Shown: in pieces, positions 987-53,315 of the stretch
How positions within the stretch are numbered: the stretch's first letter is position 1
How the letters are laid out: the number at the start of each line of letters is the position of its first letter
Origin: Planctomycetota bacterium
Lineage (GTDB): Bacteria > Planctomycetota > UBA1135 > UBA2386
NCBI GenBank assembly: GCA_965228735.1
Contig: OZ245838.1
Location: 2,304,001 to 2,368,000, forward strand
Direction: 5' to 3'
DNA: 64,000 nt
Notes under the pieces: generated by a model
The model's database searches: none
Told to the model about the DNA's origin: nothing
Seen by the model: only the letters and a program-made list of their open reading frames with translations
Translations under genes and position numbers: made by a program

Positions 987-3401
987 ATGTCCAGTACCCA
1001 CCGTGTCGTAGCGGCGATCGCCGCGCTTCTGCCGTTCACCTGCATCGCAACCGCGCAGGGCATCACCGATCCGCAGGCCCCTCGCGCCGGCCACCCGAGC
1101 GCTGATTACCCAATCGCGCAAGACTCCGAGACCGGCGATCCCCGCGGCATCGCGACGCATGGCACCCGACTCGAGCCCCGAATCACGAGGATCCACACGG
1201 CGCCCGACGACATGGGCGTGCCGTACGGAACATGGGCCGCGGGGGCCGGGTACAAGGCCTCGTTCCACGACGGCATGACGTTCGTGCCGTACCTCGGCCG
1301 CGACTACCCGCACAACCAGCCGTGGTCGTGGACGACGCGATCGGTCGCGATCGGCGAGGTCGAGCTCACCACCGAACCCGCGTCCCACCGTCACACCGAC
1401 ACGCGCTACGAGTACGACCTCGGCGGCGTCACCGAAGCCTACGATGTGCGCCTCGACGGCCTCGAGCAGACCTTCGTGATCCGATCGCGCCCGAACGCCA
1501 CGGGCGATCTGACCGTCGTCGGCGACATCACGAGCGCGCTCGCCGCCGAGCCGACGGCACCCGCGCACGGGCCGCTCGTGTTCCACGATGAACGCGCCGA
1601 ACCGGTCCTGTCCTACGGCGCCGCAACCGCGATCGATGCCGCGGGCCGATCGACGCCGATGTCGACGAGCTACAGCGGCGGCCGCATCACGCTGACCCTC
1701 GACGGCACCTGGCTGCAGAGCGCCACGTTCCCCGTGGTCGTCGATCCGCTGATCGGCAACGTCGCGATGCGATTCGGCACGCCGGCGTTCGACGTCGACG
1801 TGGTGCGCGATGACGTCGGGACCAGCGACAACGTCTGGTACATCTACTCGCGCTCGGCGTCCGCGACCGATACCGACCTCTGGCTCTGGCGGCGCGACGA
1901 CGACCTCCAGTCGACCGACGTCGGCGCGTTCATGGACACGACGACGAGCTGGTCCACGGACGGCGGCAAGCTGGCAGTGAGTGCCGCGACGGGCAAGGTC
2001 GTCGCGGTGTTCAGCCGCCATTGGCCGAGCCTCGTGCCGGAAGCGCGGCGACTGCGCTGGCACGCCCACGACATGTCGGATCTCACGAGCGACACGACCT
2101 ACGGCGCGCTCGTGGTGCAGTCCTCGAGCGGCGTCAACGACTGGCGCCCGGCGATCGGCGGCACGCGCTCGTTCTCGTCGGGCCGCGAGGTCTGCATCGT
2201 CTGGCAGCGCGAGGAGAACGGCGCCGGCAACGGCTTCAGCAACTCCGGGAGCAGCGCGATCTACGGCATGATCCTCGACATGTCGGCGAGCCAGCACGGG
2301 GCTGCGGGCACGCCGTTCCCGATCCGCGAGTATCCCACGCACGATGCCGAACGCCCGTCGATCAACCGGGCTTCCCGTGGCGCCGGCACCTACCGCTGGG
2401 CCGTCGCATACATGCTGTGGGACGGCAATCCGCTCGATCGCGACTGGGACATCTACCTCAAGCACGTCGACAACACGGGCGCCACGTTCGGCAGCGCCAA
2501 CCTCGAACCCAGCGCGCAGAACCACAAGCTCGGCCCGACGATCGACGGTCAGGACGGGCGCTACCTCGTCGTCTACGCGACCGTGCCCACGGCGACCGTC
2601 AACAACAAGACCGACACGATCCAGGGCCACGAGGTCAAGTCGGCGCGAGTGGACACGGTGAACTCGACGTTCACGGTGCTCGGGACCAGGTTCCTGATCT
2701 CCAACTCCGATCGGCGCTGGACGCCGGGCGGCTGCGCCTACGACACCGATTCGGCGAGCCATTGGGCGGTCACGTACCACAGCAACATCACGAACAACTC
2801 GTACATCACGCGGCTCGGCTACACCGGCGCGCTCCTGCGCCAGCACACGCTCTACGACGGCACGGCCACCGACGACCCGTTCGTCGGCGCACTGAGCTTC
2901 GACGACGACAACGACCGGTTCGTCAGCGTCTTCCCGGTCGCCAACCTCAACGCGTTCAGCCCGGTCTACGGTGACCTGCTGACCTACCCGACGGCGCCGC
3001 CGTGGACGCAGACCGGCACGACGTGCTGGACCGCGAACATCAACTGGCGTTCGGCCGGCAGCCTCGATCTGCAGGACCAGCAGATCGGCAACGAGTTCAC
3101 CGAGATCTTCGTCGGCGGCGCGCCGCAAAACGCGGTCCACTTCCTCATGATGTCGCTGGCCCCGAAGAACACGCCGGTCACCATCCCCGTCGTGGCGTCC
3201 GGCTGCCGCCTGCTCGTCGAGGACACCGGTCCCGCCTACCTCGGCGTCTTCCCGATCCGGATCGGCAACCTCGTGAGCTGGCAGCTGCCGCTGCCCGAGT
3301 TCTTGCCGGCGATGACGCTCTACTTCCAGGACTGGCACACGGACAGCTCGGCGTCGACGATGTACTCGACGCGACGGCTCACGGTGCCGCTCGTGCGGTG
3401 A
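987..3401 (+). CDS. Large secreted/surface protein (N-terminal domain ending FPVVVDP, beta-rich repeats, shared C-terminal domain)
   Basis: ORF 759..3401 with likely ATG at 987 (MSSTHRVVAAIAALLPFTCIATAQ, a signal peptide). High-GC3 codon usage. Confidence 0.8.
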   Translation: MSSTHRVVAAIAALLPFTCIATAQGITDPQAPRAGHPSADYPIAQDSETGDPRGIATHGTRLEPRITRIHTAPDDMGVPYGTWAAGAGYKASFHDGMTFVPYLGRDYPHNQPWSWTTRSVAIGEVELTTEPASHRHTDTRYEYDLGGVTEAYDVRLDGLEQTFVIRSRPNATGDLTVVGDITSALAAEPTAPAHGPLVFHDERAEPVLSYGAATAIDAAGRSTPMSTSYSGGRITLTLDGTWLQSATFPVVVDPLIGNVAMRFGTPAFDVDVVRDDVGTSDNVWYIYSRSASATDTDLWLWRRDDDLQSTDVGAFMDTTTSWSTDGGKLAVSAATGKVVAVFSRHWPSLVPEARRLRWHAHDMSDLTSDTTYGALVVQSSSGVNDWRPAIGGTRSFSSGREVCIVWQREENGAGNGFSNSGSSAIYGMILDMSASQHGAAGTPFPIREYPTHDAERPSINRASRGAGTYRWAVAYMLWDGNPLDRDWDIYLKHVDNTGATFGSANLEPSAQNHKLGPTIDGQDGRYLVVYATVPTATVNNKTDTIQGHEVKSARVDTVNSTFTVLGTRFLISNSDRRWTPGGCAYDTDSASHWAVTYHSNITNNSYITRLGYTGALLRQHTLYDGTATDDPFVGALSFDDDNDRFVSVFPVANLNAFSPVYGDLLTYPTAPPWTQTGTTCWTANINWRSAGSLDLQDQQIGNEFTEIFVGGAPQNAVHFLMMSLAPKNTPVTIPVVASGCRLLVEDTGPAYLGVFPIRIGNLVSWQLPLPEFLPAMTLYFQDWHTDSSASTMYSTRRLTVPLVR

Positions 3402-6634: not shown

Positions 6635-6711
<77 letters not shown>

Positions 6712-6845: not shown

Positions 6846-8108
6846 CTACAGCCGGATCTCGACCGCGTTGCTCAGCGTGATGTCCGCGAGCTGGAGCCCG
6901 TCGATCGCGACGTGCTGCAGATACACAGACGCGCCGAAGAACGACACGTTCGTCGGCAGGCTGTGCCGCATGACGCCCGCCGCATCGGCCTGGACCGCGA
7001 TGCGGGTCACGGGGTCGAGATACTGCAGGCAGCCGGTCGTGCCGAGCAGCGGATCGAGGTTGAGCGGCGGGGTCAGCGGCTGGAACGCGATCGCGACGTT
7101 GCCGACCGCGTTCGGCCGATGCGAAGCGGTGACGGATACCACCGGGTTGCCGACGCCATGGATGGTCTCGGTGCGCAGCCACGGGGTGCCGTACGACGAC
7201 GAACACGGGTATCCGAACGTGCACGCCTGGCCATCGCCGGGCAGTCGCGCCACGGTGACGCCGGTCACGGCACCAGAACCGCCGGCGGTGCCGACGAGCG
7301 TCGGCCGCCCGGACGATCGATCGACGGCGAACACGCGCCCTTGCGACGTGCCCGTCAGAAACCGACCGCGGCTGTCGACGGCAATTCCGTTGGGGTCGGG
7401 GATCGCGGAGTTGGGCGCGATCAGGTCGGTGACGGATCCGTTCCCGTCCACGCGGACGAGTCGGTTGGCCGGCGCGCCGACCGCGGCGAGGACGTCGCCC
7501 GTGCACGGATCGAATCCGACGCCCGTCACCGAGCCGCCGAGCCCGTTCACCCACGCGACCGCGGTGCTCGCCCCGGCCGGCAGACGGAAGAGCGCACCGT
7601 TGCCGCCCGCGATGAAGTCGCCGGTCGCCGGATCGACGGCGCCCGCGTTGAGCCCGCCACCCCAGGGCTGCACGCCGATCGACACGGGCGTCACGGCGCC
7701 AGCCGCGTCGATCCGACGCACCTGACCGGCCCAGGCATCGGCGACCCAAACGTTGCCGAACGCGTCGAAGCTCATCTGCGTCGCGATCCCGATCGCGTTC
7801 GTGATCAACGTGTAGCTGACCGTCATCGGTGCCGTGACGCGCGCTTCGCCGACGAAGCCATAGCCGCCGATCAGGAACACGTCCGGATCGCTCGGTCGAT
7901 GCAGGATCGACTCGGCCGTGCCGGGACTGATCGTGCCGCCGAAGTTGGGCGTCACGGTGAGCGTCACCCGCGCACCGCTGCTGTCGAGGTAGGCCAGGTC
8001 CGACGTCGACGGCACGCACACCCCCACCCAATCGGACCGCATCGTCTGCGCGAACGCGCCGACGGAGCACAGTCCGACCGACGCCAGCAGGCAGACGAGT
8101 CGGGGCAT
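6846..8108 (-). CDS. Secreted beta-propeller (NHL/SMP-30-like) protein with shared C-terminal domain
   Basis: ATG 8108 with a signal peptide ending GAFAQ. Blade-like repeats FDAFGNVWVAD, VDPATGDFIAG, FDPCTGDVLAA and PNGIAVDSRGRFL. Confidence 0.75.
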   Translation of the reverse strand: MPRLVCLLASVGLCSVGAFAQTMRSDWVGVCVPSTSDLAYLDSSGARVTLTVTPNFGGTISPGTAESILHRPSDPDVFLIGGYGFVGEARVTAPMTVSYTLITNAIGIATQMSFDAFGNVWVADAWAGQVRRIDAAGAVTPVSIGVQPWGGGLNAGAVDPATGDFIAGGNGALFRLPAGASTAVAWVNGLGGSVTGVGFDPCTGDVLAAVGAPANRLVRVDGNGSVTDLIAPNSAIPDPNGIAVDSRGRFLTGTSQGRVFAVDRSSGRPTLVGTAGGSGAVTGVTVARLPGDGQACTFGYPCSSSYGTPWLRTETIHGVGNPVVSVTASHRPNAVGNVAIAFQPLTPPLNLDPLLGTTGCLQYLDPVTRIAVQADAAGVMRHSLPTNVSFFGASVYLQHVAIDGLQLADITLSNAVEIRL

Positions 8109-12663: not shown

Positions 12664-13425
12664 TCACGATCGGATCTTCGCGCGGTTGAACTCGCGGTTC
12701 AGGTCGGCGATCACGCGCACCGGGATCTCCTTCGGGCACGCGGCTTCGCACTCGTACTGGTTGGTGCAGTTGCCGAATCCTTCCTTGTCCATCGTCTCGA
12801 CGAGGTTGATCGCGCGGCGTTCGCGCTCGGCCTGACCTTGCGGGAGGTGCAGGAAGTGCGAGACCTTGGCGCCCGTGAAGAGCATGGCGCTCGCGTTCTT
12901 GCACGCCGCGACGCACGCGCCGCAGCCGATGCAGGTCGCCGCGTCGAACGCCCTGTCGGCGTCGGCCTTCGGCACCGGCATCGCGTTGGCGTCGACGGCC
13001 GCACCGGTGTTCACCGACACGAACGCGCCGGCCTGGACGATCCGGTCGAACGCGCTGCGATCGGTGACGAGGTCGCGCACGACGGGGAACGCCTTGGCAC
13101 GGAACGGCTCGACGTAGATCTCCGCGCCGTCCTGGAAACTGCGCATGTGCAGCTGGCACGCGGTCGTGCCGCTCTCGGGGCCGTGCGGCCGACCGTTGAT
13201 CGCGAGGCTGCACGTGCCGCAGATGCCTTCGCGGCAGTCGTGATCGAACGCGATCGGCTCCTCACCCTTCTGCGTCAGCTGCTCGTTGAGCACGTCGAGC
13301 ATCTCGAGGAACGACATGTCGGGTGACACGTCGTTCAACTCGTAGCGGACCATGCGACCGTCCTGGCCGAAGTCCGACTCGGTGCTCGGGCGGGACTGCC
13401 GCCAGACATGTAGAACGACTCTCAT
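12664..13425 (-). CDS. sdhB: Succinate dehydrogenase/fumarate reductase iron-sulfur subunit
   Basis: Cysteine clusters [20 protein letters not shown] and [13 protein letters not shown]. Confidence 0.95.
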
Positions 13426-13434
13426 GATTGCTCC

Positions 13435-15350
<1,916 letters not shown>

Positions 15351-15354
<4 letters not shown>

Positions 15355-16043
15355 GCCTGCCCCCCGACGAGCCCCGTGAGAACGGCCAGAACGAGGAAGA
15401 TGTTGCCGCCCGTGATGAGCACGGCAACGGCGGTGGAAGCGGTCTTGATCATCGGGGTATAGCGGTCGTGATTGAGCCCGAGCGTCTGCGCCAGGCTCTG
15501 CACGCCGTGCGTGAGGTGGAAGAACAGCACCACCTGGAACGCGATGTAGGCGAGGGCGATGCCCGGCACGGAGAAGCCCGCGACGACCATGCCGTAGACG
15601 TCGTGCCCGCCGCTGCTCGTCTCCAGCGAGAAGTGGCCGGGGTTGGTCACGCCGAGCGTGAAGTGCAGCAAATGGTAGATGACGAACACGAGCGTCGAGA
15701 GGCCCGTGAAGACCATCGAGCGCGACGCCAGCGAGGCCTGGATCGTCGTCTCGCGCGCATACGGCACCGGGCGCGCCGCGCGATTCTGGCGCGCGAGGCG
15801 GATGCCCGTCACCACGTGCAGCACGAACACCGCGAGCAGGCCGAGGCGGGCGGCCCAGAGCAGGGCGCCCTTGCTCTTCAGGAACGCCGCGTAGTCGTTC
15901 ATCGCGTCCGCGCCCTGCAGCAGCAGCAGGTTGCCGAGCAGGTGCGCGACGAGGAAGCCGAACAGCAGCAGACCGGTGATCGCCATCGTCACCTTGCCGC
16001 CGATCGAGCTCCGCCAGCCGTCCAAGAGCCACGTCATCTTCAT
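15351..16043 (-). CDS. sdhC: Succinate dehydrogenase cytochrome b subunit (single dihaem membrane anchor type)
   Basis: [21 protein letters not shown], conserved His residues in TM helices, [15 protein letters not shown]. First gene of the sdhCAB operon. Confidence 0.9.
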
Positions 16044-17268: not shown

Positions 17269-20200
17269 TCAGTTGCCCAGCACGACCTGCAACGCGCCCG
17301 TCGTCGAGAACGCGCCGAGGATGCCACCGCCCGCGTCGACGATGGCCCACTGGTAGAAGAGATTGAGCCCGAGATAACTCGGATCGCTCGGAATCGCCAT
17401 GCCGGCGCCGCCGTACCCGCTGGCGTCGGTCACGAGCGAGAGCCCGGGCAGGGTCGGGTTGGCGACGTATTGCCGGCACCCGGGCGCCCAGTAGATGCTC
17501 GCGGGCGCGAACGAGATGACCTGCAGCGCGAAGCTGAGCGGCGCCGCGTCGTCGACCGTGATCTGAAAGCCCGCGTTGCCGAGCTGCGGCAGCCCGACCG
17601 TACCGATGATCGGCGCGCCGTTGGTGCCGTCGCAGGGCTCACCATAGGGCAGCACGAACGCGACGCCCGCGGTCGTCGGGTCGTAGATCCACGGCTCGCT
17701 GCCGACGACGCCGTCGTTGCACGCGAAGTAGACGACCGCGCCCGCGTCGTAGAAGTCGGAGAGCTCGGCCGCGCCGCGCCCCGGCGGACCGAAGTTCGTC
17801 ACCTTCGTCGTGCCGGCAGCCGTGCCGTTGCTGATCCACAGTTCGAGCCCGTCCTGCGGCGAACCCGCGCCGAACAGCAGCTGCGAGCCGCCGAGCACCG
17901 CCGTCAACGTGCCCGACACGACGCCGTCCGCCTCGCCGGGGCCGATGTCGAGCACCATCTGGGTGCCCGCCGTCGTGCCGTCGCTGAACCACAGCTCCGC
18001 GCCGCTGCCCGTGCCGTCGTCGGAAACGAAGAACAGTCCGAGGTTGGTCCAGGTGAGCTCGGTGTAGGCGTGGAAGAGCCCAGCGCCCCACGTCGTGATC
18101 TGGTGCGTGCCGGCCGCCGTGCCGTCGGAGAACCAGATCTCGCGCGAGCCCCCGACCGTCGCGGTGAAGTAGACGCCGTTGGCAGCCGCCGTCACCTCGA
18201 GCGGCGTGCCCCCGCCGACGCCGGGCACGAGGTCGGCGACGAGCACCGTGCCGGCCGCCGTGCCATCGCTGACCCAGAGTTCGTTGCCGGTGCTGCCGTC
18301 GAACGCGCGGAAGAACACTCGGTCACCGACCGCCGTGAACTGGCTGACGTTGGACGATGCCGCGCCGGGTCGGATGTCGACGAGCAGCATCGTGCCGGCC
18401 GCCGTGCCGTCCGTCACCCACGGCTCGCGCCCGTGCGTGCCGTCGTCGGCCGAGAAGAACACGAGGTCAGAGACCGGCGTGAAGTCCTCCGCCAGCAGGC
18501 CGATGCTGTTGCCCAAACCCGGCTTGATGTCGAGCAGCTCGAACGTGCCGGCCACGGTGCCGTCGCTGACCCACGGCTCGCGACCACTCCCGCCGCTGCC
18601 GCCCGCGTTCCCCGAGAAGACGACGAGATCGCCGAACGCGGTCATGCCCCGCGGATCGTAGTTGTTCGCGAGCGTGGTCAGCTGCAGCGTGCCCGCGGTC
18701 GTGCCGTCCGTCGCGAACAGCTGGCGGCCACCGCTCGTGTTGCCGGAGAAGAACGCGGTCGCGCCCGTCGACGCGAAGTAGTCGGGGTTGGAACCGAACG
18801 AGCCGGCATAGACGTCCGCCACGATCCCCGTTCCCGCCGGCGTGCCGTCGGTGATCCACGGTTCGCGCCCCGACGAGTTGGAGCCAGCCGCGAACAGCGT
18901 CAGCCCGTTCACCGTCACGAACTCGTCCGGGAACGAGCCATCGAAGGGCGGCGAGCAGTCGGCCAAGAGCGCCGTGCCGGGCAACGTCCCGTCCGTGATC
19001 GCCGGTTCGTCACCGGCGTTGCCGACGAGGCCCGCGAACAGCACGTTGCCGGCCAGCTCCGTGATGGCGTCGGGATGGGTGCCGAAGACACCGGGCGCGA
19101 GGTCCGCGACGAGCACCGTGCCGGCGGCCGTGCCGTCCGTGCGATGGAACTCCGTGCCGAGGCTGCCGGCGTTGGCCTGGAACCAGAGCTCGTTCCCGAT
19201 CTGCCCGAACCCCTGCGGGCTCGAGTGCGCGCTGCCCGGGTTGATGTCGATCAGCAGCTGCGTGCCCGCGACGGTCCCGTCGGTGTGCCACAGCTCACGG
19301 CCGTGCACGCTGTCGTCGACGGAGAACAGCACCTCGCCCTGCCACGCGACGAAGTGGCCGACGAAGCTGTTGCCGACCGGGTTGATGTCGACGAGCTGCG
19401 TGCCCGCCGCGGTCCCGTCCGTGAGCCACAGTTCGCGGCCGTTCGTGCCGTCGTCCGCGGCAAACACCGCGAACGCACCGGCGTCGAGGAAGTCGCTGGC
19501 CGTCGAGCCGAGCGTGCCCGGCTTGAGGTCGCCGAGCAGCACCGTACCGCTCGCCGTCCCGTCGCTGAAGTACGGTTCCCGACCGATCCCGCTGCCGTCG
19601 TCCGCGACGAACAGCACGCCGTTGCCGAACGGCGCGATCGTGTTGATGATCGTGCCGCCGGTGGGATCGAGGTCCGCGACCATCGTCGTGCCGGCGACCG
19701 TACCGTCACTCCGCCATAGCTCCGTGCCGTGCGTGCCGTCGTTCGCCGCGAACCAGATGTGACCTGGCGTCACGACGAGCTGATCGACGTTGCCGCTCGC
19801 GAGGCCGGGGTTGACGTCGACGAAGAGCGTCGTTCCCGCCGTCGTTCCGTCGGTCCGCCACAGCTCGATGCCGTTGCTGCCGTCGTTGGCGCTGAAGTAG
19901 ACGTAGTTGCCGAGCCGCACGAGGCCCGAGATCGCCGCCGAGGCCCCGGGCCGCACGTTCTTCACGAGCACCGTCCCCGCCGTCGTGCCGTCGGTCTTCC
20001 ACAGCTCGACGCCGAGACCCGGCACGTTCGCCGCGAACAGCAACTCGGCGTTGAGCTCGACGAAGTCCGTGGGATTGCTGGAACCGGCCGGGTTGAGATC
20101 GGACAGGATGTGCGTGCCCGCCACGGTGCCGTCGGTGACCCACGGTTCGCGCCCGAACGGCCCGTTGGGTGAGAACACCGCGACTCCGCCGAGGACGTGG

Positions 20201-20352
20201 AACGCGCTGATCCCGCTGCCGGGGTTCGCCGAGCTGCTGCTGACCAGGTTGTCGACGAGGTTCTGGGCGGTGGCCGCACCGGCCAAATTGATGGCGGCCA
20301 GACCGGTGGCGGCCACGACCGCGAGAGATGGACGGACGGGGAGGCGAAGCAT
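17269..20352 (-). CDS. ELWxxDGT-repeat surface protein with shared C-terminal domain
   Basis: About 17-18 repeats of G.E(L/P)W.(T/S)DGT.AGT. Signal peptide from ATG 20352 ending AATAQ. Confidence 0.9.
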   Translation of the reverse strand: MLRLPVRPSLAVVAATGLAAINLAGAATAQNLVDNLVSSSSANPGSGISAFHVLGGVAVFSPNGPFGREPWVTDGTVAGTHILSDLNPAGSSNPTDFVELNAELLFAANVPGLGVELWKTDGTTAGTVLVKNVRPGASAAISGLVRLGNYVYFSANDGSNGIELWRTDGTTAGTTLFVDVNPGLASGNVDQLVVTPGHIWFAANDGTHGTELWRSDGTVAGTTMVADLDPTGGTIINTIAPFGNGVLFVADDGSGIGREPYFSDGTASGTVLLGDLKPGTLGSTASDFLDAGAFAVFAADDGTNGRELWLTDGTAAGTQLVDINPVGNSFVGHFVAWQGEVLFSVDDSVHGRELWHTDGTVAGTQLLIDINPGSAHSSPQGFGQIGNELWFQANAGSLGTEFHRTDGTAAGTVLVADLAPGVFGTHPDAITELAGNVLFAGLVGNAGDEPAITDGTLPGTALLADCSPPFDGSFPDEFVTVNGLTLFAAGSNSSGREPWITDGTPAGTGIVADVYAGSFGSNPDYFASTGATAFFSGNTSGGRQLFATDGTTAGTLQLTTLANNYDPRGMTAFGDLVVFSGNAGGSGGSGREPWVSDGTVAGTFELLDIKPGLGNSIGLLAEDFTPVSDLVFFSADDGTHGREPWVTDGTAAGTMLLVDIRPGAASSNVSQFTAVGDRVFFRAFDGSTGNELWVSDGTAAGTVLVADLVPGVGGGTPLEVTAAANGVYFTATVGGSREIWFSDGTAAGTHQITTWGAGLFHAYTELTWTNLGLFFVSDDGTGSGAELWFSDGTTAGTQMVLDIGPGEADGVVSGTLTAVLGGSQLLFGAGSPQDGLELWISNGTAAGTTKVTNFGPPGRGAAELSDFYDAGAVVYFACNDGVVGSEPWIYDPTTAGVAFVLPYGEPCDGTNGAPIIGTVGLPQLGNAGFQITVDDAAPLSFALQVISFAPASIYWAPGCRQYVANPTLPGLSLVTDASGYGGAGMAIPSDPSYLGLNLFYQWAIVDAGGGILGAFSTTGALQVVLGN

Positions 20353-20470
20353 GGTCAATCGAGAAGGGCGCGCCGACGGGCAACGCACGCGGAAACGCGC
20401 GACCATCCTACCCGCCACGACGATTTCGGCGAAGCCGACCGGCGGGGCCGACCGCACCCGATGCCGCCCA

Positions 20471-21856
20471 TTACTGCACGACGTCTCGGATCGCGTTGCC
20501 GAGCACCGGCGGCCGCAGCGGGTCCAGCGTCAACGCCTGGTAGTGCAGTTCGAGCCCGACGAGGCCGGCCTGGTTCGGGATCGGGAACGTGACGTTCACG
20601 CCACCGTTCGTCGCCATCAGCAGCGGCAGGGGCACCGCGGCGGCAGGCAGCAGACGCAGCGTGCCGAGGCCCGGGATCGGCTGGCTCGCGCCCGCGGTGC
20701 TCACCGCCGCGAGCACCGGCGTCGACGCCGAATCGCGCGGCACGACGAACTCGACGGTGTAGGGCTGGCCGAGCTGCGGTGCTGCCGGCGAATCGACCTG
20801 ACGTTGCGCGTTCGTCGCGATCATCCACGGCCCGACGAGGTCGAGATCGCGATCGCCGTCCACGTCGATCAGGACCATGTCGGAGCCCAGCCCATTCAGC
20901 CCGGGGGTCGGGCGCGTCGTGAAGTTGCCGAGGCCGTCGTGCTCGTGCACCCGACCCGCGCTGATGAGGTCGAGGTCGCCGTCCTCGTCGTAGTCGAGCG
21001 CGAATCCGACGCTCTGGACCTGGAGGTTCGACGGGTTGGCGAACGCCATGCCGCCGAGGTTGCGGCGGAACCGGCCGTCCGCCCAGATCAAATCGATCCG
21101 GCCGTCGCCGTCGAGGTCGCCCGGGACGAACCGCCCCGCCAGGTTGAGGCCCAGCAAGGTGAACACGGCGTTGCCCTGGTTGACGAAGATCGCCCCGGGC
21201 CCCCACCGGCTCGGCAGCACGATGTCGAGGTCGCCGTCCTGATCGAGGTCCGCGGCGAAACAGCCCGACTGTTGACCCGACGCACCGGCCGTCGTTCCCG
21301 GCAGGTTCGTCGCGGACACATCCGTGAACACCCCGGTGCCGTCGTTGAGGTAGAGCCGCGTCGACGACGCCGCCTGCACGAGCCAGTCGACGTCGCCGTC
21401 GCCGTCGAAGTCGCCGACGACCTGGTCGACGCTCCAGTCCGCGTTCGCCGGCAGCGCGGTCGCCGAGACGTCGACGAACGTGCCGTTGCCGGTGTTGAGG
21501 TGGACCCGGTCCGGCACGTTGTGGTCGTTCACCACGAGCAGATCGAGGTCGCCGTCGCCGTCGAGGTCAGCGAGGTCGACGGCATAGGACGCGTTCGAGG
21601 CCGGGGTCGTGAGGCGGCCGGCGGTGGCATCGACGAAGGTGCCGCGACCGTCGTTGAGCCACAGCTCGTTCGGGCCGTAGTCGTTGGCGATCACGAGATC
21701 GGGGTCGCCGTCGCCGTCGACGTCACCCGCCGCCACGTTGTAGCCGTAGACGATCGGGGGCAGCGAGTGGTGCCGGGTCGTGCGGAACGGATCCTGCGCC
21801 GCGACGCAGGTCGCGAGCAGCAGGCCCGGGAACAGCAGCTTGTCCGAGGGGATCAT
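20471..21856 (-). CDS. FG-GAP/VCBS-repeat secreted protein with shared C-terminal domain
   Basis: Repeated (G/A)DxDGDGDxDL motifs plus LxLNxGxGxFxD. Signal peptide ending VAAQ. Confidence 0.88.
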   Translation of the reverse strand: MIPSDKLLFPGLLLATCVAAQDPFRTTRHHSLPPIVYGYNVAAGDVDGDGDPDLVIANDYGPNELWLNDGRGTFVDATAGRLTTPASNASYAVDLADLDGDGDLDLLVVNDHNVPDRVHLNTGNGTFVDVSATALPANADWSVDQVVGDFDGDGDVDWLVQAASSTRLYLNDGTGVFTDVSATNLPGTTAGASGQQSGCFAADLDQDGDLDIVLPSRWGPGAIFVNQGNAVFTLLGLNLAGRFVPGDLDGDGRIDLIWADGRFRRNLGGMAFANPSNLQVQSVGFALDYDEDGDLDLISAGRVHEHDGLGNFTTRPTPGLNGLGSDMVLIDVDGDRDLDLVGPWMIATNAQRQVDSPAAPQLGQPYTVEFVVPRDSASTPVLAAVSTAGASQPIPGLGTLRLLPAAAVPLPLLMATNGGVNVTFPIPNQAGLVGLELHYQALTLDPLRPPVLGNAIRDVVQ

Positions 21857-47345: not shown

Positions 47346-48194
47346 CTACAGCGGCTTGAACGACCACTTGAGGCCGTTGATCGTCGCGGTGCCGCTGTTG
47401 AAGAAGTGCACCGAGCGGCCCGCCGGGACCGTGATCGGCACGGCCGTGCCGGTTTCGTGACCGGCGATCGTCGCGAGCACCGTGCCGTCATCGAGCCGGA
47501 TCTCGAGCACGCCGTTGCTGGCCTGCTTCTGGATGCAGACCAGCAGATTGAGCGGCGGGCGACCGGCCGGGTTGCTGACGATGGTCTTCTTGCGATTGTT
47601 CTTCTCCCAGTAGGAGTTCCGGCTGATCGAGATGCCGCTGTTGCCGCCGAACATGAACGCGACGTTCGCCGCGCCGCCGAAGTGCAGGCCGATGTTCGCG
47701 ACCGCGAGGTTGGTCGCGGCGACGTTGCCGACCGGATCCATGACGAGCCCCTGGAAACCGAGCTCGAGCCCGCTGAGCGCCGGGTCGGGCGGCAGCGGCA
47801 GCGGCAGCTGGGCCTGGCCGCCGGGCATCGGCAGCGCGTAGGAGCCGAGCGACAATCCCGGATCGAGGAAGATGTCGATCGGGTTGGGGCCGATCGGGAT
47901 CTCGAAGCCGGAGCCGGCCCAGCCGGAGATCGCGATGAAGCCGAAGTCGAAGCCCGGCGCGACGAGCTGCACGCTCGTCGTGGTGCCGAGCACCGGCGGC
48001 TGCCCGCCGACGAGCTCGACGACGCTGCTCGGCGACACCGCGCCCGAGCTATCGAACATGTGCAGCCAGTGCGAGCCGTCGTCGCCGCCCGTCGTCTGGG
48101 CGGCGGCGGTCGAGGCGAAGGTGCCGGCGAGCGCGCAGGTGATGGCGAAGAAGGTCGAGGAGGCGGAGAAGCCGCGGTTCGGGGAGATGGTCAT
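47346..48194 (-). CDS. Secreted hypothetical protein carrying the shared domain internally plus an extra C-terminal domain
   Basis: ATG 48194 with signal peptide ending AAAQ. Contains PPVLG...LPLPPDPALSGLELGFQGLVMDP...ATN. Confidence 0.7.
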   Translation of the reverse strand: MTISPNRGFSASSTFFAITCALAGTFASTAAAQTTGGDDGSHWLHMFDSSGAVSPSSVVELVGGQPPVLGTTTSVQLVAPGFDFGFIAISGWAGSGFEIPIGPNPIDIFLDPGLSLGSYALPMPGGQAQLPLPLPPDPALSGLELGFQGLVMDPVGNVAATNLAVANIGLHFGGAANVAFMFGGNSGISISRNSYWEKNNRKKTIVSNPAGRPPLNLLVCIQKQASNGVLEIRLDDGTVLATIAGHETGTAVPITVPAGRSVHFFNSGTATINGLKWSFKPL

Positions 48195-52130: not shown

Positions 52131-53315
52131 CTACTCGACGGCCGGCAGCAGCTCGATCCACCGCCCGCCGCGCCAGGTGAAGAGCCCGAACCCGCCCGCG
52201 AACAGCCGGCCGTCGGGCATCTCCGCGAGACACTCGACCACCGTGTCGAGCTCGCCGATCGGCCGCCACACCGTGCCGTCGAAGCGATGCACGCCGGCGT
52301 TGGCCGTGCCGACCACCACGTTGCCGTCCGGCTGCCGGATCACGCACGTGAGGATCTCGTCGAGCCCGGCGTGCAGCGGCGCCCAGGCCTTCCCCGTCCA
52401 GCGCGCGACGTTGGTGCAGGCGAGCCCACCCGCGTGGTCGAACGTGCCGATGACGACGAACGCGCCGCCGCCGACCGGCACCGCGGCCCGCACCTCGCCG
52501 TCGACACCGAGGCCGAGCGGGTGCCAGTTCTCACCATCCCAGCGCGCGACGTTGTTCGCCCGCACCTGACCCGCGAGCTCGAACTCGCCCATCGCGACCA
52601 CGGCCCCGTCACCGAGCGCGATGCACCCGAGGACCCGACCCTCGATGCCGCGACCGAGCGGCCGCCAGCGACCCGGAGTTCCCGTCACGGCGGTCGCGAT
52701 CACGGCGTTGCCGGTTGCGGCAGGGTCGGCGCCCACATCCACGCCAGGGTCCACGACTCGCGGCTCGAATCGCGCGAGGTTGACCGCGCGCTCGACACCC
52801 GCGTACTCGAACGAGCCGCCGATATGGAGCACGCCGCGCTGCGCGCCGCGACCAACGGCGAGCGTAGAGACGAAGCGAAACGCCTCGTCGTCGATCCCCG
52901 CGCCGAACGCGTGCCACCGCGTCCCGTCCCAGCGCGCGACTCGCCAGGCCGGCACCCCGCCCGCCTGCGCGAACGCCCCCGCCACCACGAGATCACCGGT
53001 CGGCAGCACGTCGACGGCGCGCACCGAGCCGTCGAGTCCGCGGCCGAGCTCCCGCCAGGTCCCGGTCTCGGGATCGAACAGCCCGATGTAGTTCTGCAGC
53101 GGATTGCCCGGCCACGGCGACCGACCGGCGACCGCGAGCACCGGGTTCTTCGGCCCCGCACCATCGGGATCCCACGGCGTCATCGCGGTGACCTCGGTGA
53201 TCCGGAACTCCTCTTCCTCCTGCGCCACGACCCGCTCGGCCGAAGCGCCGAGTGCGGCGAGGAGAGCGGTTGCCCGGACGAGCAGCCGAGCCTGCAAGAG
53301 AGGACCGTCGAACAT
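52131..53315 (-). CDS. Secreted beta-propeller repeat protein
   Basis: Signal peptide. Repeats of (V)ARWDGxxWxxLGxGxDGxV...GxFxxAG. Confidence 0.75.
   Translation of the reverse strand: MFDGPLLQARLLVRATALLAALGASAERVVAQEEEEFRITEVTAMTPWDPDGAGPKNPVLAVAGRSPWPGNPLQNYIGLFDPETGTWRELGRGLDGSVRAVDVLPTGDLVVAGAFAQAGGVPAWRVARWDGTRWHAFGAGIDDEAFRFVSTLAVGRGAQRGVLHIGGSFEYAGVERAVNLARFEPRVVDPGVDVGADPAATGNAVIATAVTGTPGRWRPLGRGIEGRVLGCIALGDGAVVAMGEFELAGQVRANNVARWDGENWHPLGLGVDGEVRAAVPVGGGAFVVIGTFDHAGGLACTNVARWTGKAWAPLHAGLDEILTCVIRQPDGNVVVGTANAGVHRFDGTVWRPIGELDTVVECLAEMPDGRLFAGGFGLFTWRGGRWIELLPAVE

Follow-up and report, generated by a model that had tools for sequence, protein, structure and literature searches.

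A terminal Ig-like domain on exported proteins of a Planctomycetota bacterium, a candidate surface-docking module

Results

The window, the whole 64,000-nucleotide stretch of a Planctomycetota genome that was analysed, was originally predicted to encode five unrelated secreted proteins ending in one recurrent domain, and the five open reading frames and the motifs quoted from them were all found. On the minus strand at 17269..20352 lies an ELWxxDGT-repeat protein of 1027 amino acids (translation; TIGR04534, 18 stretches, E 1.8e-222), whose C-terminal domain (17272..17661, 130 amino acids, iE 2.6e-22) carries two Cys and was the copy used for structure prediction. An FG-GAP repeat protein of 461 amino acids (20471..21856, minus strand; PF13517, E 3.7e-51) ends in a 110-amino acid short form that lacks the Cys pair in the alignment (20474..20803, iE 1.3e-10). 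The 420-amino acid product of 6846..8108 (minus strand) is a probable β-propeller protein, judged from its translation and from sub-threshold SGL/NHL matches only, with a two-Cys C-terminal domain of 127 amino acids (6849..7229, iE 8.1e-14). On the plus strand, 987..3401 encodes an exported protein of 804 amino acids with no Pfam or NCBIfam family, the passenger of which is one of a 29-member cluster of paralogous carriers; its C-terminal domain is diverged, 133 amino acids long, and also has two Cys (3000..3398, iE 6.1e-13). The fifth gene (47346..48194, minus strand) encodes a translated product of 282 amino acids, again exported and without a Pfam or NCBIfam family. By its coordinates, the domain of this protein (47679..48023, iE 1.4e-12) lies near the mature N-terminus and is followed by 110 more residues, so that the predicted C-terminal placement holds for four of the five proteins and fails for this one. 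Signal peptides ending in A|Q were recognised by eye on all five, and by a heuristic score on four.

Pairwise likeness among the five copies is weak, with the tail of the 804-amino acid protein matching the others at E 0.013–0.045 (Z=1). A profile built from 322 other copies in the source genome (G000), with the five window copies left out, matched each of them at iE 1.3e-10 to 2.6e-22 (Z=61,526; membership was originally seeded from the five) and matched none of their reversed sequences. One domain is therefore common to the five proteins.

As anticipated, the domain belongs to no named family in the libraries searched. Pfam and NCBIfam gave no match on it for the five proteins and 45 copies (the lowest E values, 0.055 and 0.075, each came from a single member), the PDB sequence search reached a best E of 0.21, and no paper describing the domain was found in the open-access literature. 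AlphaFold predicted a confident all-β Ig-like sandwich for the 17272..17661 copy (pLDDT 92.5), ending in a predicted β-strand. Foldseek returned nothing at E≤0.001; its weak rows include ML-type lipid-binding domains (NPC2, Der f 2 and GM2 activator; E ~0.01–0.02), mixed with antibodies. A wide structure comparison (VIA) gave Ig-like matches at Z 7–8.8, the best with an rmsd of 2.7 over 90 aligned residues; Ig, macroglobulin and CBM folds scored equally well, and no T9SS tail was among the matches listed. The ESM Atlas yielded 30 unnamed clusters without Pfam. A homodimer prediction scored 0.00 and gave no verdict. On the predicted structure, the domain is a generic Ig-like β-sandwich, unnamed in the libraries searched.

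Profile search of the source genome, placed in Planctomycetota by its nearest SdhA matches, identified 325 confident copies, or about 380 when diverged ones are included; reversed-ORF decoys gave no match at iE<1e-3 in any of the four profile iterations. Every one of the 325 carriers holds a single copy. The expected C-terminal bias was borne out, with 307 of the 325 copies (94%) at the C-terminus, 13 at the N-terminus after the signal peptide, four followed by an extension of 18–25 residues, and one internal; four MAM proteins also hold a diverged internal copy, recognised by eye. Eight genes encode only a signal peptide and the domain, without cargo; G000:864546–865034 is an example of the domain standing alone. 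The 351 passengers compared fell into 127 single-linkage clusters, and dockerin/cohesin systems likewise place one module at the end of exported proteins that are otherwise unrelated. The domain spans about 125 residues, with both Cys present in 187 copies, both absent in 33 and a single one in 13. Mean column identity is 31% in the source genome and 18% across two classes, and the family comprises 22,314 clusters at 50% identity. The domain is hydrophobic in composition and has almost no Lys (median GRAVY +0.38, K+R+E 4.6%), and its hydrophobic hairpin is short or missing in many aligned copies.

The predicted co-occurrence with signal peptides was also seen genome-wide: by the heuristic score, 255 of 318 carriers have an A|Q signal peptide, whereas 712 of 4573 other proteins do. 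Among signal-peptide proteins, the domain occurs in 274 of 305 with low charge and in none of 512 with high charge. The passengers alone, with the domain excluded, have a median K+R+E of 7.6% vs. 17.8%, and carriers were the less charged members of homologous families in 60 of 66 pairs, with 17 of 21 distinct partners agreeing. The available portion of one study describes cheaper residues in extracellular proteins and gives no K/R/E threshold (PMC2932507); low charge may mark an extracellular location. Lipoproteins had been expected to lack the tail, which is the case in the window and not throughout the genome, where three of 318 carriers have an SPII-only signal and two more look lipoprotein-like by eye. 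The 13 N-terminal copies and the 3–5 lipoprotein carriers therefore indicate that the domain is not strictly a C-terminal signal. The lipoprotein G000:2655148 aligns with a carrier over 550 amino acids at 57% identity and has a lipid anchor in place of the domain; one ELWxxDGT lipoprotein also lacks it. Judged from such alignments, a lipid anchor replaces the domain on homologous proteins.

We compared the domain with other terminal modules on homologous passengers. For one PF28492 passenger, 120 relatives were classified by what follows it. The domain closes 77 of them and a dockerin-like module another 19, and no relative has both; a further 19 have fewer than 45 residues there (some of these being partial sequences), and the remaining five end in something else. 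Among 120 ELWxxDGT relatives, the domain is terminal in 22 and absent from all ten proteins with a T9SS tail, nine with SLH, three with dockerin and six with RTX. The domain thus sits where relatives in other bacteria have dockerins or other surface tags, and therefore likely tethers proteins outside the cell.

The type I dockerin of Phycisphaerae (PF00404) is likewise found as a lone terminal module on numerous unrelated exported proteins; behind an orthologous passenger (~50% identity) it takes the position of the domain and never appears alongside it. The two modules nevertheless differ, the dockerin being a Ca-binding module of 65 amino acids and the domain an all-β one of 125, and their profiles are not similar (hhalign probability 0.14%). 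The duplicated Ca-binding motif was absent from the domain copies and from the source genome, as was any match to cohesin (PF00963) from the latter, with controls positive in two genomes for each. SLH (PF00395), which is helical and usually repeated, is a terminal non-covalent envelope anchor that takes the place of the domain on the ELWxxDGT relatives above, and gave no match on the domain copies or in the source genome. PEP-CTERM/exosortase and GlyGly-CTERM/rhombosortase are lineage-wide tags on many diderm surface proteins. They consist of a short motif, a TM helix and a basic tail, whereas the domain alignment has no terminal TM helix or basic tail; the only two PEP-CTERM matches in the source genome lie elsewhere. 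In PMC6461901, the ‘planctosome’ hypothesis is tied to dockerin-bearing Phycisphaerae proteins.

The type A T9SS C-terminal domain (TIGR04183/PF18962) shares with our domain the Ig-like sandwich, a C-terminal position on hundreds of Sec-exported proteins and ELWxxDGT cargo. The A|Q ends of the carriers' signal peptides recall the Bacteroidetes Q-rule, as set out in PMC5837995, by which signal peptides are followed by Q. Our domain differs in being longer, in its Cys pair and in accepting N-terminal and internal positions. None of 45 members matched TIGR04183/PF18962, and an hhalign comparison with ten T9SS tails gave 0.09%. TIGR04183 had no match in the source genome, in a search whose controls also gave none. 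SprA (TIGR04189) had no candidate in the source genome (93% complete), nor in 14 control genomes, and a crude composition screen of large or barrel-like exported proteins revealed no SprA-sized carrier-specific barrel.

Across the phylum, the domain was found in 59 of 301 Planctomycetota genomes, with a subtype in the cultured strain Poly30 (Poly30_07210). A family either lacks it altogether or has it in tens to hundreds of copies, and a broader two-class profile detected hidden copies in none of 40 domain-negative genomes. These results support a lineage-restricted module on exported proteins. The source genome has T2SS-type machinery, with seven secretin matches, a secretin with Secretin_N, pseudopilins and a PilM-like protein; the adjacent genes are labelled GspE and GspF on our own reading and not from a family match. 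A single-copy giant GspK-like gene (ORFs of ~1270–2290 amino acids; 1735 in the source genome) lies in a pseudopilin/PilM/TPR operon and was found in 38 of the 40 domain-positive genomes compared and in 17 of the 40 domain-negative ones; related genomes among them are not independent. Its presence in the 17 negative genomes, and the failure to find it in a genome with 96 domain copies (G105, 89% complete), rule it out as an exclusive partner and leave it a partial candidate. A TPR-secretin pair with ExbB/ExbD is not a specific machine, being present in 77 of 80 genomes. The genome comparisons that were run yielded no carrier-exclusive translocon or protease of the kind predicted. No carrier-exclusive exported family emerged from the 123 signal-peptide proteins common to the source genome and a distant carrier (G177), with 66 of them scanned against Pfam and two candidates profiled; this comparison (BLAST E<1e-8 against 2.32 Mb) may miss diverged partners. 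In one family (f57), a single domain copy lies inside a peroxidase (46–49% identical to carriers of the source genome) and the protein is capped by another module, which recurs ten times in one genome (G187). As a general alternative tag, this basic module was rejected, since a four-row profile found it in only four of 50 genomes.

Discussion

Of the proposed role in surface sorting or anchoring, the docking half fits best. We put at about even the chance that the domain is an uncleaved module that docks exported proteins non-covalently at the outer cell surface, where it would likely do the job of the dockerin, SLH or lipid anchor in other lineages. After a carrier had crossed the inner membrane by Sec, its domain would fold in the periplasm and form a disulfide. 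Already folded, the protein would then pass the outer membrane, most likely via a type II secretion-like machine of the source genome, and the domain would stay attached; the region that contains the near-invariant Pro and Gln would bind one common surface partner, either a protein or LPS/lipid. That the domain works at either protein end favours docking. This placement, with at least one internal copy, the eight cargo-free genes, the failure to find any T9SS marker and the lack of profile similarity to T9SS tails, weakens the idea of a T9SS-like cleaved C-terminal signal. Against docking, the source genome revealed no partner, neither a cohesin nor, among the proteins compared, a carrier-exclusive exported family; 3–5 lipoproteins carry a lipid anchor as well as the domain, and the 19 short-ended PF28492 relatives, some of them partial, have no terminal module. 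Moreover, the strong C-terminal preference and the near-obligate presence on low-charge proteins suit an export signal equally well.

Such a signal is a possible, if doubtful, explanation: the domain would be a folded targeting signal for a lineage-adapted type II secretion machine, read for example by the giant GspK-like pseudopilin, and any anchoring would be separate. Its near-obligate presence on soluble low-charge exported proteins, its substitution, where passengers are homologous, for export tails of the T9SS and RTX types, the enrichment and operon context of the GspK-like gene, and the peroxidase-embedded copy capped by a different, recurring module all point this way. However, the distribution of that gene is imperfect, eight genes encode the domain without cargo, and the modules that the domain replaces include dockerin and SLH, whose role is binding and not export signalling. 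The ordinary Ig-like fold, with its ties among Ig, macroglobulin and CBM, and the low sequence conservation would suit a generic accessory (for glycan or lipid binding, stability or spacing) spread by shuffling and having no common cellular partner. We regard this as improbable, given the strict single copy per protein, where spacers and CBMs commonly repeat, the all-or-none distribution at high copy number, and the failure of the domain ever to join a dockerin on one passenger. The hydrophobic, nearly Lys-free composition and the weak resemblance to ML-type domains could also reflect insertion in a membrane, or sorting to vesicles or a periplasmic compartment, by the hydrophobic hairpin without a protein partner. 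That resemblance, however, is not significant and is mixed with antibodies, and many copies have a short hairpin or none, making this very improbable.

More broadly, and tentatively, the domain may belong to an undescribed sorting system in several Planctomycetota classes that are uncultured and a few that have been cultured. An Ig-like tag would send essentially the whole extracellular proteome (~7% of genes in the source genome) first to a machine derived from type II secretion, tipped by a giant GspK-like protein, and from there to a shared receptor on the surface. Such a system would parallel the Bacteroidota T9SS in function, and dockerin or the basic module would serve sister lineages as interchangeable tags.

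With the domain as a marker, the likely extracellular proteome can be picked out in one step in several Planctomycetota lineages, most proteins of which are annotated as hypothetical. The domain also points to an uncharacterised surface-display route in bacteria with unusual envelopes, and the subtype in strain Poly30 makes the choice between anchor and export signal testable at the bench.

Domain detection, fold and taxonomic range

Translation of the window recovered the five open reading frames of the original prediction (987-3401, 6846-8108, 17269-20352 with ELWxxDGT, 20471-21856 with FG-GAP, and 47346-48194) together with their quoted motifs. The proposed alignability of the five segments held through a profile, whereas pairwise scores were weak and the 987-3401 copy was not significant. 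We iterated a five-segment HMM over the six-frame translation (61,526 ORFs) of the organism's own genome, G000, a single contig of 7.19 Mb with 69% GC, where it converged at 292 domains with no reversed-ORF decoy at iE<1e-3. A profile built without the five recovered each window copy (iE 1.3e-10 to 2.6e-22). The full search counted 325 proteins, each with exactly one domain, and 307 copies ended ≤15 residues before the stop, confirming the suspected C-terminal bias. The 47346-48194 copy, by contrast with its description as a tail, lies near the N-terminus, with 110 residues after it. The non-terminal copies (n = 18) comprised 13 N-terminal, 4 with a short extension and 1 internal; eight genes encoded a signal peptide plus the domain alone. 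With more sensitive passes the count rose first to 363 and finally to 378 among 5,383 genes, as called by our own simple gene finder, and copies were distributed over the entire chromosome.

As the original prediction held, the domain has no name in Pfam, NCBIfam, PDB sequences or Atlas. AlphaFold predicted an all-beta structure (pLDDT 92.5), for which Foldseek returned no significant match; the VIA matches, with Z reaching 8.8 at best, were tied among generic domains of Ig-like and macroglobulin type. The most conserved residues in G000 copies were Gln (97%), Pro (95%), Gly (88%) and two Cys (79% and 77%). Because the two Cys occur or vanish together (both in 187 of 233 rows, neither in 33, one in 13), the alignment suggests that they form a disulfide. 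No description of the domain was found in open-access literature, and the accessible portion of 10.1101/817700 does not mention secretion, signal peptides or S-layers.

An alignment of 45 G000 copies (A1) matched 59 of 301 Planctomycetota genomes, essentially all-or-none per family, including 15/15 of the same order and families beyond the class. G177, from a different class, carried 33 copies in 2.32 Mb, with further diverged copies by eye. A broader profile found 96 copies in genome G105, 1-2 in four genomes, and none in 40 negative genomes; a public library held 22,314 domain clusters at E≤0.001. A domain subtype occurs on Poly30_07210 (E 9e-5 against the G000 profile when searched as one of 120 sequences), and its profile matched A1 with E 5e-5 and 67% probability; we take Poly30 to be the cultured Saltatorellus ferox. 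Elsewhere in the window, we read a succinate dehydrogenase/fumarate reductase-like operon from translations at 12664-16043 (-), with the closest SdhA relatives (84-87%) titled Planctomycetota MAGs, and one tRNA at 6638-6711 (-).

Carriers are exported and low in charge

By a heuristic that undercounts, many missed carriers having a signal peptide by eye, 255 of 318 carriers had a signal peptide ending A|Q, versus 712 of 4,573 other G000 genes; signal peptides of lipoprotein type only were called for 3 carriers versus 244 other genes. Such A|Q ends are common across G000 (967 genes, scoring +1 Q only), recalling the Bacteroidetes Q-rule, which according to PMC5837995 is not a generic sorting signal. 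The remainders of 351 carriers (passengers) formed 127 clusters, with motifs including FG-GAP, ELWxxDGT, S8, Kelch-like and haem; 42 public carriers added PKD, RCC1, M12B and others.

Median K+R+E was 7.6% in passengers (n = 272) versus 17.8% in other soluble signal-peptide proteins (n = 580). Within soluble signal-peptide proteins, the domain was present in 274/305 below 11%, 9/34 at 11-14% and 0/512 above; many of the 31 low-charge proteins without a detected domain resembled diverged copies or barrels by eye. In homologous families the non-carrier was more charged in 60/66 pairs, which are not independent (17/21 distinct partners), and several exceptions were lipoproteins. Extracellular proteins use cheaper residues, according to the part of PMC2932507 seen, and low charge may mark an extracellular location. 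As a natural in-window control, an exported beta-propeller without the domain at 52131-53315 (-), ~34% related to domain-bearing propellers, was more charged (13% vs 5% in the aligned part).

Exchange with other terminal modules

Where some passengers carry the domain, relatives of theirs carry dockerin, SLH, a T9SS tail or a lipid anchor instead. For the ELWxxDGT passenger of the window, the domain was terminal in 22 of the 120 best relatives, while PF18962 occurred on 10, SLH on 9, RTX repeats on 6 and dockerin on 3, none of which carried the domain. For the PF28492 passenger, 77 of the best 120 relatives (query included, ~50% identity) ended in the domain, 72 detected by G000/G177 profiles and 5 by the subtype profile only; the remainder comprised 19 with a dockerin-like module (pattern match), 19 with <45 residues and 5 others, and the domain and dockerin-like module never co-occurred in the 120. 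A G000 lipoprotein without the domain was 57% identical to a carrier over 550 residues. G000 had no match to dockerin, cohesin or SLH and two to PEP-CTERM; a cohesin-dockerin 'planctosome' has been hypothesised for freshwater Planctomycetes (PMC6461901, in the part consulted).

In family f57, the lone domain copy sits inside a di-haem peroxidase, ahead of another module, which recurs 10 times in genome G187. Profile comparison of the domain with T9SS tails, dockerin-like tails and this f57 module gave probabilities <0.2% throughout. Families f57, f25 and f37 include exported proteins with a second unnamed, basic C-terminal module (~145 aa, sometimes up to 310; loci L258, L259, L271, L272, L275, L276), for which NCBIfam gave no match.

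Candidate secretion machinery and function

SprA and T9SS-tail searches found nothing in G000, with controls silent too; secretin matches numbered seven. Of 1,032 genes common to G000 and G177, 123 had a signal peptide and lacked the domain, and the 66 scanned with Pfam were mostly known envelope families. Two clusters were profiled across 40 domain-positive and 40 negative genomes. The TPR-secretin pair by ExbB/ExbD was phylum-wide (77/80 genomes) and was rejected as a dedicated machine; at L244 (G000:6769699-6784599) and L127, two TPR-bearing secretins flank two TPR proteins, ExbB and two ExbD, possibly a proton-driven secretin system. A 1,735-residue GspK-like protein, whose T2SSK match was sub-threshold, occurred in 38/40 positive versus 17/40 negative genomes, a distribution that may only follow phylogeny, and was not found in the 96-copy G105. 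This giant GspK/PilX-like pseudopilin (L243:5305-10509 (-), G000:1400802-1406009; L137:10858-15918) has no Pfam family above threshold; its operon encodes FHA, PilM-like and TPR proteins, four further pseudopilins and a PPIase lipoprotein, and the gene is single-copy in 55/80 Planctomycetota genomes searched (ORFs ~1270-2290 aa).

A PF28492 carrier heads an operon conserved in G000 and G177 (L245, G000:4008517-4019012; L141), with an unknown protein, a TonB-dependent receptor, DUF3450, ExbB, ExbD and TonB-like genes. Seven large low-charge lipoproteins (870-1310 aa; G000:2418873, 2569111, 2572632, 2655148, 2657890, 2691436, 5165994), two with weak Big_5 matches, are possible surface scaffolds.

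The domain combines single copy, an export signal, flexible position and low-charge cargo. We give roughly even probability to a docking module, favoured because an orthologous passenger bears a dockerin in its place, the closest of the swaps, and because its position is unrestricted. That the domain instead targets proteins to type II secretion is less likely but plausible, since this would fit its near-obligate presence on low-charge exported proteins, and the two roles could both hold. A generic accessory domain is unlikely and direct insertion into the membrane more improbable still, both fitting less well than docking or type II targeting. With docking, carriers would cross by Sec export, the domain would fold in the periplasm, and outer-membrane passage would probably use a type II machine; the domain would stay uncleaved and bind one surface partner.

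This analysis adds the split by charge, the exceptions to terminal placement, counts of the module swaps, the occurrence in a cultured strain and profiles of two machines. The domain stands outside every family tested, yet in the way it works it resembles modules of a familiar kind.
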